Origin: an uncultured cyanobacterium
GTDB taxonomy: Bacteria; Cyanobacteriota; Cyanobacteriia; CAKZMO01
Direction: 5' to 3'
Assembly: GCA_963719515.1 (NCBI GenBank)
Contig: CAVRCJ010000008.1
Coordinates: forward strand, 32,001-96,000
DNA: 64,000 nucleotides
Positions 31,781-40,393 of the stretch are shown one piece after another; the stretch's first letter is position 1, and every line of letters starts with the position of its first letter. A program made the position numbers and the translations under genes. The notes beneath the pieces were generated by a model. The model saw only the letters and a program-made list of their open reading frames with translations, ran no database searches and was not told the DNA's origin.

Positions 31781-34700
31781 ATGTCGTCAGAACAGCAGCA
31801 GCGCATCATGGGCTACTTCATTGAGGAGGCAAAGGACCATCTCAATACGATTGAGCAGGGATTGCTCAATCTTCAAAGCACAACGGAAGACCCGGAGCTG
31901 ATCAGCGAGGTTTTTCGAGCGGCTCACTCCGTTAAGGGTGGGGCAGCGATGCTGGGCATCGACAGCGTTCAGCAAATGTCACACCGCCTTGAAGATTGCT
32001 TCAAAATTCTTAAAGAGCGGCCGGTTCGAGTCGATCAGCGGCTAGAGTCCCTATTTCTACAGGTTTTTGACGCGCTCAAGGCGCTAATTGAGCAGCTGCA
32101 AAGCCCCTTCGGTCTAACTGACCAAAGCGCCAATAGTATCGTACAGGCGGTAACGCCGGTGGTCGAGGAGCTGCAGGTCCACTTCAACCAGCTGCTGCGC
32201 TCTGATGAATCGCCATCGGTGATGGAGGGCGGGATCTCCTCAGACGTCTCGGCCCTTTCTGAAGGAGAGCTTTCCCCAATAGCCCGGCGGTTTTTCCAGG
32301 CTGACGTCCCGGAACACTTGCGGCACATGCTGCAGCTTTTCAAGCAGCCTGATAGTTCTGAAGGCCGCTACCGGCTCGATCAGTGCTGTCAGCAACTGCT
32401 CACCCCCAGTCGTGCCGTTGACCTACCGGCGCAGTGGCATCAGCTTGTGACCTACGTCCAGCGGGCGATCGCCTACCCCACAAATTCGTATCGCCAGCTC
32501 GCGCCCATCATTATTAAGAACCTCAAGCGTGCACAAGAAAACGCCGTTGCGGGACGGGCCTACGCCATAGACGTTAGCGATGACCTGCAGGCCTTACTGC
32601 CAGCAACGCAGGATCCGTCAACTCAAGGCAGCGAGCTAGATCTGCTGCTCGCAGGCGCAGCCTTTTCCGGCGATTCACCTGGGGATAGCGCTGATGACAT
32701 GGCTGCCTTTGATGACGAGGCGATCGCCGCTGGGGATGGCGATGCTGAGACGGGTGCTATCGATGAGGCCGCGCTGGACGACTTAGACCTTTTCTCTGAC
32801 CCCGACGCAAATCTTGCCGATGTTGATATTGCTGATATAGATGGCTTGGCGGATTTGTTTGAGGCGGAGCTACTAGAGCCAGGGCTGTCAGAGCCTGAGC
32901 TACCAGAGCCAGAACCTTCCGAGTTAGAGCTACCAGAGCTAGAGCTTTCCGAGCCAGAGCAGCCAGAGCCAGAGTTACCAGAGCTAGAGCTTTCCCTAGA
33001 TTCGGAGAGCAGCGACGACCTGGATATCCTGTTTGGAGTAGGTGACTTCGGTGACAGCGACGCAGAGGCTGCTGTAGAGCCCGACACGCAAGACCCTATT
33101 GCGGACGCTTTTGATGCTGAAGGTGACGTTACCGATGGGGACGACCTCTCAACGTTGCTGGCTATGGATAGTGAACCTGAAGCTGAGCGTCTAGTCTCGG
33201 CCCTTTCGGATACGGTCGACAGCGATTTGGACGAGCTATTTGGCGATTTGCTAGGGGGTGACGATTTAGAGAGTGAGAATCTGGCAAACGAGAATCTGGC
33301 AAACGAGAGTCTGGAGAGCGAGAACCCGGAGGGCGAGAATCTGGGGAGCGAGACCTTTGAGAGGGATTTGCTAGAGAGCGACGATCTGTCAAACGAGACC
33401 TTGGAGAGCGAGAATTCAGAGGGCTATATAGAGGCTACGACAGAGGCTCAAACTCAGGAGGCTCAAACTCAGGAGGCTCAAACTCAGGAGGCTCAAACTC
33501 AGGCAGCCGAGAGTGATGTTGTGCCTGAGACCGACGTCACTGAGTTGGGCGCAATAGAGGATGACGCCGAATTAGACCTTAGCTTGTTCGACTCAGTTAG
33601 CCCTGACGAGGCTCCTCCAGAACAGCCCTCTCTGGCGCTAGATGACCTCTTTGCTGACTTTGCTGAGCCGTCTGAGGCAGCGCTAGAGCTAGAACCAGAA
33701 TTTGATACAGAATCAGAGCTTGATACAGAACCAGACTCTGATATAGATACCGACCTAGACCTTCTCGCAGTTGCTCCTGACGACCAACCCCCAGCGCAGA
33801 TAGTGGAGGACGATTTTGACCTGGGTTTGGAGCTAGAGGCTCAAGCCGCTCCCTCCGCCTCGCTAGAGGATTCTGCATCCTTGGAATCAGACGAATTTTC
33901 TGCTCTTTTCGAGTCTACCCCGGAGCCCTCCGCTAGCCTTTTCGATGAACAGCCCGATGCGCCTGTTGCCGAGGGCGACAGCGGCTTAGACGGGTTCTCC
34001 TCACTGGAGCCAGAGACCGGTGATGCTGAGGCTTCCGGCGATATTGAGTTCTCTAACGACACTAGCGCTGCCGACGCTTCTGTCCCCGATGACGCACTGG
34101 ATTTTAGTCTAGACGCGATCGCTGACCTAGAGGCTACCGCCGTAGAGGTGGACGCTAGCCCTGAGGAGGCGCTAGGCTTTGATATCTCCACGGTCGATGT
34201 CACAGAGGATGTCTGGGAGAGCGAAGACAACGAGCCGGAGTGGATGGAGGCGATCGGGTCTGACGCTGAGGGCGAGAATCCCTTTGAGGTCTCGGCCACC
34301 GGCCTTGAGGAGGAGGGCCTCACTGAGTCAGCGGAGAGCGGACTCGACGAGCTATTTGAGGGCCTACCGCTACTTGATATCCTGTCTGACTCGCCGCTGG
34401 ACATTGTTGAAGCGCAAGAGCCTGCCCTCGGCGAGACTGACGCCATGGCAGACGGTAGCGATGCTTCCTCAGAAGATGCCACACCGCTAGAGGCCACATC
34501 ACTTCAGTTTGAGGGGGAGGAGATATTTGAAGGCGATGCACCCGGAGAAAACGCGCCTCTTGAGGAGAGCGTCCCCCCTGAAGAGAGCGATATCGATGCC
34601 AATCAGTTCGATGCGCTGTTTACCGATTTTCCCGGCGTCGCCCAGCCGGACAGTGCAGCGGCGGAAGATCCCTTCAGCCTGGATGACCTAATGACAGCCG

Positions 34701-37315
34701 AGGCAGAGCTGGCCCCCGACGACTCTGCCGTTGAAGATGACCAGGCTTCGGAGCGCCTTGATGATTGGGCTGTAGGCTCCTCTGACGCGGCGCTATCCGA
34801 GCCGCAGGAAGAGGTGGAGTTGTCCGAGCCCGAGCCATCGCCCGACGAGTTCGACGACCTGCTCAGCATTGGTAGTTCAGACTCCACTGACGGGGCTGAG
34901 GCGGATTTAGCCGATGATGCTGGTCTAGGAAATAGCCCGCAGAATAGGTCTGGGGAACAGCGGTATCGTACCGAAGACGTCGCCGATGACTTCTCAGATT
35001 TGGACGCCCTATTGGGAGACCCCGATGCCGATGTTCAGGCGGACCTGTCGGTCATAGACTCGGCGGAGTATAACGATTCGGCTGCAGCTGACTTAGCTTC
35101 AGGCGACTCGTCCGAGCCCTACGATCTTGCAGAATCTGACTTAGAGTACATAGACCAGTCGCTCGGCGGAACAGAGCAAATTGAGGCGGCTATTCAGGAG
35201 CTAGAGGGACGGGGAGAATCCGATCTATCTTTAGACCCGCTAGAGGACAACGCCCAAAGCGCCGATGACTTTGCTGATCTAGAGAAGCTGCTGGAGCAGG
35301 CCGATGAGACCTTGGGCGGTACCCCAATGCCCTCCACAGCCCTGCGGCTGGCTTCACCGGGTCGCCGCGCTGCTCGTCGCCCCGCCTTGGGAAACCAGAC
35401 CATGCGGGTCGCCGTCAAAAATCTGGACAACTTGAACAACCTGGTTGGAGAGCTGGTGGTCAACCGTAACAGCCTAGAGCAGTCTCAAGATCGGTTGCGG
35501 CAATTTCTGGATAATCTCATGTCCCAGGTGCAGCAGCTGGGGGATTTGGGCCAGCGGATCCGCGATCTCTACGAGCGATCGCTGCTGGAAAGCTCCCTGC
35601 GGTCGAGTCGCCCGCAGCAGACCGTTTCTTTTGTCTCTGACGACCAGCAACACGTCACCGGGGCGCGGTTTGACGCGCTTGAGATGGACCGCTTTACAGG
35701 CTTTCACAGCTTGTCTCAGGAGATCATTGAGCTGATTGTGCGCGTCCGGGAAGCCGCCTCTGATATTGACTTCGTCGTCGATGAGAGCGACCAGGGTACG
35801 CGGATGCTCAGGCAGATCACCACACAGCTGCAGGAGGGCATCAACCACACCCGCATGGTGCCTTTCGCGCAAGCCGCCGATCGCCTTCCTCGAGCCGTGC
35901 GCGACATCTCGGTCAAGTTCAACAAGCAGGCTGAGCTAGTGGTTGAAGGGCGAGATACCCTAGTGGACAAAATGATCCTAGAGCAGCTCTACGATCCCAT
36001 GACCCATCTGGTGAATAACGCCATCACCCACGGCATTGAGCAACCCGAAGCGCGAGTAGCGGCGGGTAAGCCGTCCGTAGGCAAGATCACGGTGCGCGCG
36101 TTTCACCAGGGCAACCAAACCATCATCTCGGTCACGGACGATGGCGCTGGCATTGATGCCCATGAGGTGAAGCAAAAGGCGCTACAGCGCGGGCTGATCT
36201 CGCCGCAGGAAGCCGAAACGATGACCCAGCTGGACACCTACGATCTCTTGTTTCACCATGGGTTTAGCACCAGGGACCAGGCGGATGACTTTGCGGGGCG
36301 GGGCGTAGGGATGGACGTGGTGCGCACTAGCCTCAGCGAAGTGCGCGGCACCGTCAACATCGATTCTACGGTGGGACGGGGGACCACGTTCACGATTCGT
36401 CTGCCGCTTACCCTCAGCATTTCCAAAGCGCTGCTGTGCGTGAGCGATCGCTCACGTATAGCCTTCCCCATGGATGGGGTCGAGGACATGTTCGACATCC
36501 CCCAAGACCGGGTACAGAGAAACAGCGCCGGGCAGACCTGCATTCCCTGGCGCGAGACTCTGCTCCCGTTCCGGCCCCTGTCCAATCTGCTGAAGTTTAA
36601 CCGCACCATTGGTCGCGGTAGCGTCTATGGCGGCAGTCAGGACGACGACATGATTTCTATTGTGGTGCTCCGCAGTACTGGCAACTACTTAGCGCTGCAG
36701 GTGGATCAGGTACTGGAAGAGCGGGAGATCGTCATTAAGCAGCTAGAGCCCCCCGTGCCCAAGCCTGCCGGGATCGCGGGAGCGACGGTGCTGGGGGATG
36801 GTCGGGTAATGCCTATCACCGATGTCCTCGAGCTAGTCGATCTCTCCCTAGGGCGATCGCGCCGGGAGCTATCGCGGGAGGAGGAGCCCCCTGTCGAAGA
36901 ACCGCCCACTGAAGAACGCGAGCCTACCGTCCTGATTGTGGACGACTCGATCACGGTGAGAGAGCTGCTGTCGATGACCTTTGCCAAGGTGGGGTATCGG
37001 GTAGAGCAGGCTAGAGATGGTCAGGAGGCTTGGGAGAAGCTCAAGTCAGGCTTACCCTGTGATCTGGTATTCTGCGACATTGAGATGCCGCGTATGGATG
37101 GCCTAGAGCTGCTGTCGCGCCTGCAGCGAGACCCCGATCTAAAGGCGCTGCCGGTAGCAATGCTGACGTCGCGAGGAGCCGATCGCCACCGACAAATGGC
37201 GGTGGAGCTGGGGGCCAAGGGATACTTCACAAAGCCCTACTTAGAGGAGGCTCTGCTGGAGGCGGCTCACCGGATGCTGACGGGAGAGGCGTTGGTCGCT
37301 AAGTCAAAATCGTAG
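31781..37315 (+). CDS. pilL: CheA-like hybrid kinase HmpE/PilL (Hpt - long acidic linker - HATPase - CheW - REC)
   Basis: FRAAHSVKGGA (Hpt), HLVNNAITHGIE, DDGAG, GRGVGMDVV, CheW and C-terminal REC. Confidence 0.95.
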   Translation: MSSEQQQRIMGYFIEEAKDHLNTIEQGLLNLQSTTEDPELISEVFRAAHSVKGGAAMLGIDSVQQMSHRLEDCFKILKERPVRVDQRLESLFLQVFDALKALIEQLQSPFGLTDQSANSIVQAVTPVVEELQVHFNQLLRSDESPSVMEGGISSDVSALSEGELSPIARRFFQADVPEHLRHMLQLFKQPDSSEGRYRLDQCCQQLLTPSRAVDLPAQWHQLVTYVQRAIAYPTNSYRQLAPIIIKNLKRAQENAVAGRAYAIDVSDDLQALLPATQDPSTQGSELDLLLAGAAFSGDSPGDSADDMAAFDDEAIAAGDGDAETGAIDEAALDDLDLFSDPDANLADVDIADIDGLADLFEAELLEPGLSEPELPEPEPSELELPELELSEPEQPEPELPELELSLDSESSDDLDILFGVGDFGDSDAEAAVEPDTQDPIADAFDAEGDVTDGDDLSTLLAMDSEPEAERLVSALSDTVDSDLDELFGDLLGGDDLESENLANENLANESLESENPEGENLGSETFERDLLESDDLSNETLESENSEGYIEATTEAQTQEAQTQEAQTQEAQTQAAESDVVPETDVTELGAIEDDAELDLSLFDSVSPDEAPPEQPSLALDDLFADFAEPSEAALELEPEFDTESELDTEPDSDIDTDLDLLAVAPDDQPPAQIVEDDFDLGLELEAQAAPSASLEDSASLESDEFSALFESTPEPSASLFDEQPDAPVAEGDSGLDGFSSLEPETGDAEASGDIEFSNDTSAADASVPDDALDFSLDAIADLEATAVEVDASPEEALGFDISTVDVTEDVWESEDNEPEWMEAIGSDAEGENPFEVSATGLEEEGLTESAESGLDELFEGLPLLDILSDSPLDIVEAQEPALGETDAMADGSDASSEDATPLEATSLQFEGEEIFEGDAPGENAPLEESVPPEESDIDANQFDALFTDFPGVAQPDSAAAEDPFSLDDLMTAEAELAPDDSAVEDDQASERLDDWAVGSSDAALSEPQEEVELSEPEPSPDEFDDLLSIGSSDSTDGAEADLADDAGLGNSPQNRSGEQRYRTEDVADDFSDLDALLGDPDADVQADLSVIDSAEYNDSAAADLASGDSSEPYDLAESDLEYIDQSLGGTEQIEAAIQELEGRGESDLSLDPLEDNAQSADDFADLEKLLEQADETLGGTPMPSTALRLASPGRRAARRPALGNQTMRVAVKNLDNLNNLVGELVVNRNSLEQSQDRLRQFLDNLMSQVQQLGDLGQRIRDLYERSLLESSLRSSRPQQTVSFVSDDQQHVTGARFDALEMDRFTGFHSLSQEIIELIVRVREAASDIDFVVDESDQGTRMLRQITTQLQEGINHTRMVPFAQAADRLPRAVRDISVKFNKQAELVVEGRDTLVDKMILEQLYDPMTHLVNNAITHGIEQPEARVAAGKPSVGKITVRAFHQGNQTIISVTDDGAGIDAHEVKQKALQRGLISPQEAETMTQLDTYDLLFHHGFSTRDQADDFAGRGVGMDVVRTSLSEVRGTVNIDSTVGRGTTFTIRLPLTLSISKALLCVSDRSRIAFPMDGVEDMFDIPQDRVQRNSAGQTCIPWRETLLPFRPLSNLLKFNRTIGRGSVYGGSQDDDMISIVVLRSTGNYLALQVDQVLEEREIVIKQLEPPVPKPAGIAGATVLGDGRVMPITDVLELVDLSLGRSRRELSREEEPPVEEPPTEEREPTVLIVDDSITVRELLSMTFAKVGYRVEQARDGQEAWEKLKSGLPCDLVFCDIEMPRMDGLELLSRLQRDPDLKALPVAMLTSRGADRHRQMAVELGAKGYFTKPYLEEALLEAAHRMLTGEALVAKSKS
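33443..33502 (+). repeat. Four perfect 15-bp coding repeats (EAQTQ)
   Basis: gaggctcaaactcag x4 inside hmpE. Confidence 0.85.
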
Positions 37316-37361
37316 CGATCCGTTTTCTGTGTCACTGGTCTTTGCAGCTCGAAATCCTGCC

Positions 37362-37952
37362 GTGCAAAACCCTGTCCTGCTTATCCATGGCCTCGACGAC
37401 ACGTCCGCCAAATTCTACCGGCTTGGGTCTTATTTGCGCGATCGCGGCTGGTCAGTCCACAGCTTAGATTTGTACCCTAGCAATGGTTCTGTCGGCATCG
37501 ACGTTTTGGCTCATCAAGTGAGCCGATATGTCGACGAGAATTTTAGCGTCGAGCAGCCTATTGACGTTGTGGGCTATAGCATGGGCGGTCTTATAGGGCG
37601 CTACTACCTGCAGCAGCTGGGCGCAGTCCAGCGGGTGCGGCGACTTGTGACTGTCGCTTCCCCCCACCACGGCACCCTCACAGCCTATCTACGACCTAAC
37701 GTTGGCGCTTCTCAGATGAGACCGGGCAGCCCCTTTTTGGCTGCGCTCAACGAAACGGTAGCGCGGCTCAATGGTATCTGCGTCACCTCTATCTGGACCC
37801 CGCTGGACCTGATGATCGTCCCGGCCAGCAGCAGCCAGCTGCCGGTAGGCCACCAGGTGCAGGTTCCCGTGGCGCTGCACCACTGGATGGTGGAAGACCC
37901 CCTAGCGCTGTCGGCGATCGCCGCTGCCCTGCGCAGACCCGTAGACCCGTAG
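37362..37952 (+). CDS. Lipase-like alpha/beta hydrolase
   Basis: PVLLIHG, GYSMGG nucleophile elbow, SPHHGT, D.MIVP. Confidence 0.9.
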   Translation: MQNPVLLIHGLDDTSAKFYRLGSYLRDRGWSVHSLDLYPSNGSVGIDVLAHQVSRYVDENFSVEQPIDVVGYSMGGLIGRYYLQQLGAVQRVRRLVTVASPHHGTLTAYLRPNVGASQMRPGSPFLAALNETVARLNGICVTSIWTPLDLMIVPASSSQLPVGHQVQVPVALHHWMVEDPLALSAIAAALRRPVDP

Positions 37953-37979: not shown

Positions 37980-38405
37980 TTAAGTTTCCCCAACTTGCTT
38001 ATGGTCAACCGCGCCAAAAATCACTTCAGCATTGCGGTAGTACTTAAACTCCATCAGGTTGTGGAACGGGTCAGCCAGGAAAAACGTGCGGTGTTCCAGC
38101 AAGGAACCTTCAAAGCGGCGCTTGGGGCTGACGTGAAAGCCGATATTGTTGCCATAGAGCCGCTGCAGAAAGGTGTCGAACTCACTCTCTTCGGGAAAGA
38201 CTAGCCCAAAATGCCGAGGATAGATTCCGGCCTGGGGTTCGATGGGCTCGGACGTCAGGTGAGCCACGAGCTGGTGACCCTGAAGATTGAGAATGACGGA
38301 TTTATCGTTTTCACGTCCGGCGCTGCAGCCTAGCTTCTCGCAATAGAACTGCTTAGTCTGGGCAATGTCAGTGACGGGAAACGCAATGTGAAAGATCGGA
38401 CTCAT
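37980..38405 (-). CDS. VOC/glyoxalase family protein
   Basis: FHIAFPV, GHQLVAH, PRHFGLV, FFLADPFHNLMEFK. Confidence 0.9.
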   Translation of the reverse strand: MSPIFHIAFPVTDIAQTKQFYCEKLGCSAGRENDKSVILNLQGHQLVAHLTSEPIEPQAGIYPRHFGLVFPEESEFDTFLQRLYGNNIGFHVSPKRRFEGSLLEHRTFFLADPFHNLMEFKYYRNAEVIFGAVDHKQVGET

Positions 38406-38699
38406 TGTTGGTTTGCAAGCAGCAGCGGAGATGACAATTATTCTAATCTGCAGGAGAGCGTGACGCTGAACTGTGCGATTTGAACATTTCAAAAGAATAG
38501 CGCCAGGTTTACTTTGTTAAACAAAGCCAGCGAGGAACAAACGAGCGGACAGACGCGGTGAGGGAGAAACCCTTGTGTCATAGGGCGCTCAGCGAATGCA
38601 AAGCTACAGTATTTTCCTAGGTCTACCGCATTTTCCTCAGCAATTTAGAGGCGGTGCGATTTAAAATAAGGAAAAAATTATGAGCGGGCGCGAAAATGC

Positions 38700-38728
38700 T
38701 TGTTTTTTGCAGGAAGTTCTAATATAGT
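38700..38728 (+). promoter_or_regulatory. Sigma70-type promoter (TTGTTT-17-TATAGT) upstream of the candidate ncRNA
   Basis: -35 at 38700-38705, -10 at 38723-38728, A-rich UP-like region upstream. Confidence 0.5.
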
Positions 38729-38738
38729 GAAGACATGC

Positions 38739-39183
38739 AGTCAGCAGTTGGATGTAGGGCCAAAGTCAATACAGGTTAGTCTTGTCGACTTTGAGCAGTC
38801 TGACAGCGGTTTTTGCCTTAAGTCTACGACCCAAATCTAGAGCGTTAACTCTAGGGTGTTAAGTAGACTTGCATATTGACTGAACTCTCGGCAGGCTACG
38901 GCCAAATCCGTTTGAGGCTCTCGGCCCAAGCGTTTAAACTGCCGAGCTTACAGGAGTTCACAGGGCAGAAGCCTGATAGCTGGCTCGACAGCATGATGCT
39001 TCGGGGCGGGCCTGATTTGTCCCCGCGCTTTGAGTTCAGTAAGGTCCGTCTTGGTCCGTCGCCGATCTGCTTCAGCCGCGCAAAGCTAACCTTTTTGCAA
39101 GTCGCTCTCGGGTGACTGAGCTTTAGGCTTGCCCTTAAATCTGATGAGAATCGGCAGGGCTTTGGCGGTTTTCTCAGCTGACT
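38739..39183 (+). ncRNA. Candidate large structured non-coding RNA (~445 nt), family unrecognised
   Basis: 5' and 3' ends pair; four nested multi-helix domains; many G-U pairs valid only on +; no credible ORF. Confidence 0.6.
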
Positions 39184-39402
39184 TGGTCTTGCTCTCGACC
39201 TCGAAGACGCTCAGCGGTTTCGCCGCGCACTCGCCCTAGGTAGTGTCCCGCTGGCTGTCGCACTGGCCGATCGCATTTCACCTGTTTGCAGCAGCGTGTC
39301 TCAGCGCCGAGCGCACCGCTCAACCCATCTCCGCAGCTTGCCCACCGCTGCTGAGAATCACCAAGCCTCAAATTCCACCAACTAACGTTTCAGTTTCAAC
39401 GG

Positions 39403-39750
39403 TTGCCGATGTCCCCAAAATCTCTCCTTCTCCCACTTTGCCTCTCTTTCTTCTGTCTATCTATCGCCCTTCTGACAGGCATTAGCCGTCTGTCGTTGGC
39501 AGAATTTTTGCCTTATCAAGACGCCGCTCAAGTCAGCTTTGCTCTAGAGCAGTCCTTCGCCCCTGCTGCGCTGCCGGTGGAAACGGTGCTGCTGGCCGTC
39601 AGCGATCGCCCGTCTGCTGAACTCGTTGCCCTACGGTCTCCCCATCAGCAGTGGGGCATCTGGAGCCGGGCGCTGCAGCGCACCCGGCAGCTTTTGTGGA
39701 TGCTGACCCGCCAAAGCCAGACCCTCCGCCAGGGTACGCAGCTTGCATAA
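39403..39750 (+). CDS. Possible hypothetical protein
   Basis: 115-aa ORF with a hydrophobic N-terminus and no motif; may be spurious. Confidence 0.3.
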   Translation: MPMSPKSLLLPLCLSFFCLSIALLTGISRLSLAEFLPYQDAAQVSFALEQSFAPAALPVETVLLAVSDRPSAELVALRSPHQQWGIWSRALQRTRQLLWMLTRQSQTLRQGTQLA

Positions 39751-39790
39751 TTGAGGGGTACGCCTTCTGAGTTAGCGAGATTGTTCATCA

Positions 39791-40393
39791 ATGGGTCAGG
39801 TGTCGCTTCAAAAACTGATTGACCAGGTGCAAGGCGGGGGCCGTTTGGTGAGCTTCCCCACCGACACCCTACCCGCGCTGGCGTCTCGCCCTGAAGATGC
39901 CGCCCTCGTTTTTAAGGCCAAGCAGCGCCCCGCCCACAAGCCGCTGATTTTGATGGCCGCTCGTGCCGAAGCGGTTTGGCCTTGGGCGATGGGCAGCGAG
40001 GCGGAGCTAGCGCTGTGGCAGGCCGCCGCTCGGCGATACTGGCCGGGGATGGTCACCCTAATCCTGCCGGTCGGCGATCGCGTGCCTAGAGCCATGCACC
40101 CAAGCGATCCCCATACCCTCGGATTTCGGATTCCCAACTGCGCGATCGCCCGCGAAATTTTATCCCAGACGGGGCCGCTGGCAACCACCAGCGTCAACAG
40201 GTCTGGTCAGCCGCCCTTAGAAAATCTAGATGAAATTAACCGCCAGTTCCCCGAAGTTTTGACCCTCGCTGCTGATGAACTCGAGCGCCGCGCCATAGGG
40301 TACACCGGGGGCGGGCAAGCATCGACCGTCGTCAAGTGGACGGGGCAAGGGTGGACCACTGTGCGCCAGGGCAGCGTTGCTTTTTCGGGCTAG
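39791..40393 (+). CDS. tsaC: L-threonylcarbamoyladenylate synthase (Sua5/YrdC)
   Basis: FPTDT, KQRPAHKPL, YWPG, GPLATTSVNRSG, ASTVV. Confidence 0.93.
   Translation: MGQVSLQKLIDQVQGGGRLVSFPTDTLPALASRPEDAALVFKAKQRPAHKPLILMAARAEAVWPWAMGSEAELALWQAAARRYWPGMVTLILPVGDRVPRAMHPSDPHTLGFRIPNCAIAREILSQTGPLATTSVNRSGQPPLENLDEINRQFPEVLTLAADELERRAIGYTGGGQASTVVKWTGQGWTTVRQGSVAFSG

Follow-up and report, generated by a model that had tools for sequence, protein, structure and literature searches.

A candidate structured RNA domain linked to a conserved promoter and a rare small open reading frame in cyanobacteria of the family Elainellaceae

Introduction

What is encoded by a stretch of about 1 kb (~38405-39409) that lacks genes in the genome of an uncultured cyanobacterium of the family Elainellaceae? 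The window, by which we mean the whole 64,000-nucleotide (nt) stretch of DNA analysed, is contig C8 (CAVRCJ010000008.1), positions 32001-96000. The locus is single copy in this 5.28-Mb genome, as judged by an own-genome repeat search. An earlier note, made from the letters alone, placed a four-domain, 445-nt non-coding RNA (ncRNA) here. Instead, we find that the gene-free stretch holds a conserved promoter and a smaller structured RNA domain. Both are linked to a small open reading frame (ORF) at 39409-39750.

We compared 11 loci with the same cassette, consisting of promoter, leader and small ORF, from three cyanobacterial genera (g1, g5 and g21). The window's genus, g1, is represented by five genomes (G000, that of the window, and G001-G004) and one metagenome contig (L015, also labelled M015). 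The full fold described below is shared by six sequences only, with two more, from g5, sharing it in part.

Results

A conserved promoter travels with the small ORF

The promoter block occupies 38690-38734 on the + strand and is of the sigma-70 type. It consists of a -35 element (TTGTTT, 38700-38705), a 17-nt spacer, a -10 element (TATAGT, 38723-38728) and an A/T-rich upstream tract. The earlier note had proposed this promoter, and conservation bears it out; the block aligns without gaps in 11 sequences from the three genera. The -10 element of relatives is a perfect TATAAT, compared with TATAGT in the window. In a 5-species alignment (A2), 35 of the 48 invariant columns fall inside 38663-38735. 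The promoter is the best-conserved non-coding element of the locus.

Each of the five g1 genomes has a single copy of the pattern TTGTYTTTTG-N8-TCTAATATA, which is missing from 12 other genomes of the family. Elsewhere in the window's own genome the -35 block has weak look-alikes only, with two mismatches. When 40 relatives were searched for DNA similarity, only ~80 nt around the promoter matched, in two genomes of the same genus. A first exact-pattern scan of genome contigs returned two known relatives and one chance match in a spirochaete, and the metagenome scan returned nothing. The promoter pattern gave 111 metagenome matches, among which L015 is a genuine homologue, the sixth, and has the same genes downstream.

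From the promoter geometry, transcription is predicted to start at 38735 on the + strand, 7 nt past the -10 hexamer. The upstream neighbour is a glyoxalase gene in G000, G002 and G003 but other genes are found in G004, G001 and L015. Hence, the promoter travels with what lies downstream. Synteny anchored on the small ORF recovered the same arrangement in 5/5 genomes of g1. Across all three genera, the order and orientation of promoter, leader and small ORF are constant (11/11 loci) despite the differing upstream neighbours.

The start of the predicted transcript shares one architecture

In all six g1 sequences, the first 165-263 nt of the predicted transcript share one architecture. Unconstrained minimum free energy (MFE) folds of the first 170-268 nt produced this single common arrangement. 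Recovery was 5/6 sequences for helix P0, 4/6 for P1, 5/6 for L and 4/6 for P2. Base pairing was then scored on three sets of sequences. Alignment A1 is a structure-blind MAFFT alignment of G000, G002 and G003, onto which the 26 pairs of P0, L and P2 were mapped from window coordinates. Alignment A8, also structure-blind and made with MAFFT, covers the 5′ half in five sequences. The third set is a hand-registered table of all six sequences. Two MAFFT alignments of the domain alone (A3 and A6) misaligned the linker and P2, and were excluded from counts. All features below lie on the + strand.

Helix P0 closes the domain. Its 5′ strand, AGUCAGC (38739-38745), begins 4 nt after the predicted start in all six sequences. 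Its 3′ strand, GCUGGCU (38979-38985), marks the end of the conserved domain. On A1, 95.2% of cells are paired and two pairs change on both sides; in the six-sequence table, 39/41 cells are standard pairs. In G002 and G003, the segments that MAFFT aligns with this 3′ strand are each complementary, in register, to the 5′ end of the same sequence. Hairpin P1 follows (38747-38804). According to the MFE folds it has a basal stem (38747-38753/38798-38804) and an inner stem specific to the window (38761-38767/38787-38793). With hand registration, 35/35 cells of the basal stem are paired and 4/6 columns are compensatory. On A8, the 3′ arms of G002 and G003 are misplaced by 2-3 columns, which lowers the pairing of P1 to 57%.

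Long-range helix L joins GGUUUUUGCCU (38808-38818) to GGGCAGAAGCC (38963-38973). The latter strand is within a conserved block, GGGCARAAGCCUG, aligned by MAFFT in all six leaders. On A1, 81.3% of cells are paired and three pairs change on both sides; the six-sequence table has 54/57 cells paired. A strand related to the 5′ strand of L is also present in genus g5. Hairpin P2 (38819-38871) has a stem formed by 38819-38827 and 38863-38871. This stem, which the earlier note had listed as aagtctac/gtagactt (38820-38827/38863-38870), is supported by covariation. It is 100% paired on A1 and 95.6% paired on A8, where 5/9 pairs change on both sides.

The P2 loop of the window holds a 35-nt insert (38828-38862) with its own CUAGAG/CUCUAG stem; relatives do not have the insert. 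At the DNA level, the insert contains a CTAGAG/CTCTAG inverted repeat around a GTTAAC site; the 18-nt core of the insert occurs nowhere else in the genome. Between P2 and the 3′ strand of L, the window MFE contains a variable hairpin (38881-38962), called D2 in the earlier note. An arm of different sequence takes this position in G002, G003 and G004, while G001 and L015 have no arm. The joining regions also differ among the six sequences, both in length (1-15 nt) and in sequence.

Compensatory changes hold the helices in register

For P0, L and P2 together, 90.9% of A1 cells are paired and 10/26 pairs change on both sides among the three species. None of 500 shuffles of A1 reached the observed percentage of paired cells, count of both-side changes or covariation score. 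The observed count of further pair types was reached by 101/500 shuffles. As a control, partners were slid by 1-3 columns. This left 19.5-49.4% of cells paired and 0-5 pairs with changes on both sides. In the hand-registered table, 168/173 cells are standard pairs and 21/32 columns have compensatory pair types; slid controls gave 47-87/173 and 2-7/32, respectively. The table leans toward the model, since its registers were set by eye on the very sequences being scored. We conclude that, in these comparisons of three and five sequences, helices P0, L and P2 are kept by compensatory change on alignments that were not fitted to the structure.

The pairs also identify the strand. G-U pairs account for 35 of the 193 paired cells and would be mismatches if read on the - strand. 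The sequence comparison hence places the RNA on the + strand. Fold z-scores were also obtained for the domain alone in each sequence. The window domain (38735-38988) scored -4.1 on the + strand and -2.5 on the - strand. Corresponding values were -1.3 and -1.3 for G002, -1.7 and -2.5 for G003, -4.1 and -3.0 for G001, -1.5 and -1.3 for G004, and -4.2 and -2.3 for L015. In three sequences, the window, G001 and L015, the + strand thus scores clearly better than the - strand. We find support for the earlier note's claim of a structured + strand RNA with its own promoter.

A covariance model built from the single sequence L015 had limited reach. It found G004 (E = 4e-7) with the 3′ half misaligned. 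With filters off, it placed G001 exactly, yet at 8.6 bits and E = 0.46. The L-P2 part of the window scored 3.7 bits (E = 9.7), and G002 and G003 were missed. The model is too weak. We also considered a switch in which the 3′ strand of L takes an alternative downstream partner. No consistent partner exists among the six sequences and this candidate was rejected.

The conserved domain is smaller than first proposed

Every string quoted in the earlier note is present where it was said to be; examples are agtcagc/gctgact (38739-38745/39177-39183) and tgaactc/gagttca (38881-38887/38954-38960). The local hairpins caaagtc/gactttg, aagtctac/gtagactt, ctagag/ctctag and D2 are all part of the MFE fold. 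The note was also right that the 5′ end pairs with a distal strand to close a multi-helix junction. However, the conserved partner is 38979-38985, not 39177-39183.

The larger model fared less well. It described a four-domain ncRNA spanning 38739-39183 and closed by agtcagc/gctgact. This perfect 7-bp complement exists, and the MFE of 38735-39190 includes it. The same interval beats its shuffles on the + strand (z = -2.96), but the - strand scores alike (z = -3.06), so the signal is modest and not strand-specific. Sequence past P0 is not conserved, and the 3′ 200 nt are absent or unalignable in relatives; the conserved part is 165-263 nt rather than 445 nt. We found no support for the closing helix of D1 (38745-38755/38871-38882), and the GCCUU of the proposed agggc/gcctt pairing belongs to helix L. 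Similarly, the 5′ strand of D3 (38962-38976) is in fact the 3′ strand of L. Both this strand and the 5′ end have partners elsewhere that are supported by covariation. The duplex closing D3 (38961-38977/39121-39135) has a free energy of -19.9, which 9% of shuffled blocks equal, and it has no counterpart in the five relatives. D4 (gagaa, 39146-39150; ttctc, 39171-39175) lies in unconserved sequence where local z-scores are no better than shuffles. Covariation among homologues upholds P0, L and P2 but gives no support to D3, D4 or the closure at 39177-39183.

A 120-nt sliding scan locates the signal. The interval 38761-38880 has a z-score of -3.1 on the + strand and -4.7 on the - strand. Perfect palindromes fold either way, which explains the good scores on both strands, and the strong - strand value is due to the 35-nt insert. 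The interval 38881-39000 scored -2.0 on the + strand. The eight intervals that start between 38921 and 39201, over D3 and D4, scored -0.4 to +1.3 on the + strand.

An imperfect second copy of the L 5′ strand and P2 5′ arm is found at 39127-39142 (UUGCCCUUAAAUCU, compared with UUGCCUUAAGUCU at 38811-38825). This copy, which was not seen in the other five leaders, explains the complement that the earlier note assigned to D3.

A long spacer separates the domain from the small ORF

From predicted start to ATG, the leaders of the six g1 sequences measure 674, 479, 469, 585, 641 and 521 nt; over all 11 loci the range is 390-674 nt. The spacer of the window (38986-39408, + strand) is not conserved and contains the 3′ half of D3, all of D4 and the arm at 39177-39183. 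By blastn, g1 leaders have no significant DNA similarity past about +15, with one exception: in three species the ~50 nt that immediately precede the ATG match. A further block is shared by the leaders of G004 and L015.

We looked for intrinsic terminators, defined as a G+C stem followed by a U run, using simple scans and inspection of MFE folds only. None was detected between domain and ORF by scanning tools in the window and two g5 leaders, or by eye in the MFE structures of the spacers in all six g1 sequences. On the sense strand, T exceeds A in 11/11 spacers. The AT skew is -0.10 to -0.26, compared with 0.00 genome-wide. This is weak evidence that transcription passes through the spacer. 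Palindromes of the HIP1 type (GCGATCGC) recur in the unconserved spacers. They occur in the window (39268-39275, with another copy at 39604-39611) and in the L008, L009, L010 and L015 leaders; those of G002 and G003 are at an aligned position.

The earlier note had seen no credible gene in the ~1-kb stretch. We agree; three candidate ORFs inside it have zero Pfam matches, and six-frame blastp detected no peptide conserved among homologous leaders (the best were 10-residue matches, E = 0.002). The small ORF (39409-39750, + strand) encodes 113 amino acids (aa), has no Pfam match and looks unannotated. Alignment of eight homologues (A7) revealed that the N-terminus is hydrophobic and that a C-terminal stretch is conserved, including an invariant RQLLWM. 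Within g1 the proteins are 39-60% identical. A profile of the eight sequences found the family in three genera among 169 sampled. Four further matches had E-values of 4.5e-4 to 0.01; two contain in-frame stops and one is in a 520-aa frame. In a collection of 5.8 billion proteins the family has only nine clusters, all unnamed or 'hypothetical'.

The cassette extends to two further genera

We inspected the region upstream of tsaC, the TsaC/Sua5/YrdC-family gene that follows the small ORF in the window, in 12 other genomes of the family from four other genera. The cassette was found in genus g5 only (2/2 genomes). Here, the promoter (TTGATG-17-TACTAT) is collinear with that of g1, the leader is 508-550 nt and the small-ORF homologue is 127 aa. 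The strand AAAGGGUUUUGUG..UUAAGCCU (+8 to +29) pairs with AGGCUA.CAA.AGCUUU, some 75-95 nt downstream, forming 17 bp in one MFE of two. Only ~9 nt precede the L strand in g5, and there is no P1 hairpin.

The third genus, g21, belongs to another family. All three genomes have a promoter (TTGATG-17-TATAAT), a leader of 391-403 nt and the small ORF. The leader (L151, 1098-1491; L152, 766-1156; L153, minus strand) is ~85-90% conserved by eye in the three genomes. Several hairpins are predicted; compensatory changes are seen in some of them, as in the region of UUGUUCGUUGUGAUGAACGA. The tsaC gene comes after the small ORF in g1 and g5 but not in g21.

The domain matches no described RNA family

None of the 4227 families in Rfam 15 reached its gathering score anywhere in the window, and the domain, by this sequence search, matches no described RNA family. 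At E-values up to 10, the only matches in 38300-39900 were three eukaryotic small nucleolar or long non-coding RNAs, regarded as noise, at 16-19 bits and outside the domain. There were 0 matches at E-values up to 1 in 10 homologous loci. A limited literature search did not find a description of such an ncRNA for Elainellaceae; 'not described' rests on this search and on Rfam.

Two common bacterial RNAs were considered and rejected. The RNase P RNA of this genome is on contig C11 (245 bits) and 6S RNA is on contig C18 (87.8 bits). Both are above cut-offs and elsewhere, with no RNase P match at the locus, in line with the earlier note. The domain falls in a length class similar to bacterial type A RNase P RNA, and also has paired termini, but lacks any match to it.

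Neighbouring genes

Upstream of the gene-free stretch are a CheA-like hybrid kinase, identified with Pfam (31781-37315, + strand), an alpha/beta hydrolase (37329-37952) and, on the - strand, a glyoxalase-family gene (37980 to about 38405, where it starts). The CheA-like hybrid histidine kinase is 1844 aa long with Hpt, dimerisation, HATPase, CheW and receiver domains; about 1100 residues between Hpt and the kinase core have no Pfam match. Downstream, tsaC (39791-40393, + strand; PF01300, E = 7e-34) starts 40 nt past the small ORF. It is followed by a GH116 glycosidase on the - strand.

Discussion

How might the domain act? The reading that we favour, and to which we give an even chance, is that it serves as a cis-acting 5′ leader element of the small-ORF messenger RNA (mRNA). 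It is favoured because the cassette order is invariant, no terminator was found and the T over A skew is seen in all spacers. Briefly, the sigma-70-type promoter (38700-38728) would start a + strand transcript near 38735. The first ~250 nt (38739-38985) would fold as a closed junction, with P0 pairing the 5′ end to 38979-38985. P1 and the long-range helix L would sit inside P0, and P2 and the variable arm inside L. The domain would then form the 5′-terminal part of a long leader (469-674 nt in g1), with probable read-through into the small ORF. In the window's family, tsaC would be co-transcribed with the small ORF. The domain may fold during transcription and act in cis: it could shield the 5′ end of the mRNA from decay, or offer a regulator a place to dock. 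The earlier note offered a large leader for downstream genes as its second option. This comes near to our favoured reading, except that the linked gene is the small ORF, which the note missed, and not tsaC.

Several observations weigh against a leader element of this kind. The window promoter falls under the threshold of a simple consensus scan because the -35 element matches only 3/6 positions; the case for the promoter rests on conservation. The helices were partly picked by eye, from six related sequences only, and support for P1 appears only after manual re-registering. By MFE, two helices are weak, P0 in G002 and L in G003. The conserved bases fall in helices, and the junction has no conserved nucleotides. 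Taken whole, the five g1 genome leaders have weak z-scores (-0.3 to -1.6, + strand). MFE folds of full leaders lose P0 in 6/6 sequences and keep L in L015 only, although L has a mean pair probability of 0.80 in the full leader of G000. Since the long-range helices are mostly displaced, the model requires that the domain folds first. The g1 spacer (254-423 nt) is conserved only in its final ~50 nt, in three species, and this segment could carry a second promoter for the small ORF. No expression platform was seen; there is no terminator beside the domain, and the start codon is too distant for masking of the ribosome binding site. Finally, g5 has been shown to share the fold only in part, and for g21 no shared fold could be demonstrated.

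Some of these observations would suit a stand-alone, lineage-restricted ncRNA of ~165-265 nt, produced from a strong promoter of its own, with ends paired by P0, and acting in trans or as a protein scaffold. The small ORF would then have its own promoter and be a neighbour or partner. We regard this as possible, well short of probable. It survives on two counts: 254-423 nt lie between the end of the fold and the ORF, and the spacer is unconserved. The conserved fold stops at P0, and paired termini are typical of stable RNAs. An ORF-proximal promoter could lie in the ~50 nt before the ATG in three species, or in the block shared by G004 and L015. In addition, conservation is higher in the promoter than in the small protein. 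Conversely, no intrinsic terminator follows the domain, whether in the three leaders scanned or the six g1 spacers inspected by eye, as would be expected of a terminator-bounded small RNA. Constant adjacency and orientation at all 11 loci, with changing upstream neighbours, are more simply explained by one transcript, and the sense-strand skew runs on through the 11 spacers. A bolder version is that an abundant RNA of this size represents a new class and forms a two-part module with the rare small membrane-protein family, for example by binding or controlling it. This we consider doubtful.

Alternatively, the promoter alone could be functional, with helices that arose by chance or are neutral, in an untranslated region that evolves fast. 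Sequence conservation does fall ~15 nt past the start, three of the six domains have z-scores of only -1.3 to -1.7, whole-leader values are weak and the sample is small and of related sequences. However, compensatory changes hold P0, L and P2 in register on structure-blind alignments. Moreover, six independent MFE folds give the same topology and slid controls collapse. Hence, we think a promoter without a functional fold improbable.

A ligand-sensing riboswitch, in which the junction closed by P0 would be the aptamer and the small ORF and tsaC its targets, is quite improbable. Purine and thiamine pyrophosphate (TPP) riboswitch aptamers have a P1 helix that closes a multi-helix junction. The domain resembles them in its distal closing helix, which has covariation support and takes in the 5′ end, its radiating helices and its position at the start of an mRNA leader, immediately after the predicted transcription start; tsaC, a biosynthetic gene, is downstream in two genera. 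Unlike such aptamers, the domain has no invariant junction nucleotides and its arms are dispensable; joining regions vary between species of one genus, the D2 arm is missing in 2/6 sequences and g5 has no P1. Nor is there an adjacent platform, be it a terminator or an element sequestering the ribosome binding site, and 254-423 nt intervene before the start codon. In g21, tsaC is outside the cassette, and no Rfam riboswitch matched at E-values up to 10. It is the variable junctions, dispensable arms and missing platform that make a riboswitch unlikely. The 445-nt, four-domain ncRNA is very improbable, given its unconserved 3′ part, its equal scores on both strands and the better-supported partners of its key strands.

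Comparable systems are known. The hairpin in the ompA 5′ untranslated region is a 5′-terminal stabiliser of a bacterial mRNA. Like such stabilisers, the domain starts close to the 5′ end (P0 begins at +5), a geometry known to hinder 5′-end-dependent decay; in size and complexity it goes far beyond one terminal hairpin of the ompA type. Rfam also lists orphan structured leader and ncRNA motifs, cyanobacterial examples being Cyano-1, Cyano-2 and the Yfr RNAs. The domain is similarly promoter-proximal, has helices with compensatory changes and is confined to a narrow range of lineages. It differs from described orphan motifs in matching no Rfam 15 family and in being tied to one rare small-ORF family. 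The earlier note compared the locus with OLE, GOLLD and ROOL. As with these, the candidate is an intergenic, structured, + strand RNA. The likeness in complexity was overstated; those RNAs are 500-800 nt with many helices, whereas the domain is 165-263 nt, has four helices plus a variable arm, and is restricted at the level of genus to family.

The finding is bounded by its narrow distribution and opens no long-standing question. It adds an undescribed structured RNA, backed by compensatory evolution, to the poorly studied cyanobacterial family Elainellaceae. This RNA is tied to a rare small protein of a kind that annotation pipelines can miss. The promoter, long structured leader and small ORF make up a three-part cassette conserved in three genera and two families. 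Were the RNA a separate molecule, it would represent a new ncRNA class. If the domain does control the fate of the mRNA, it would be an unusually large 5′-terminal control element.

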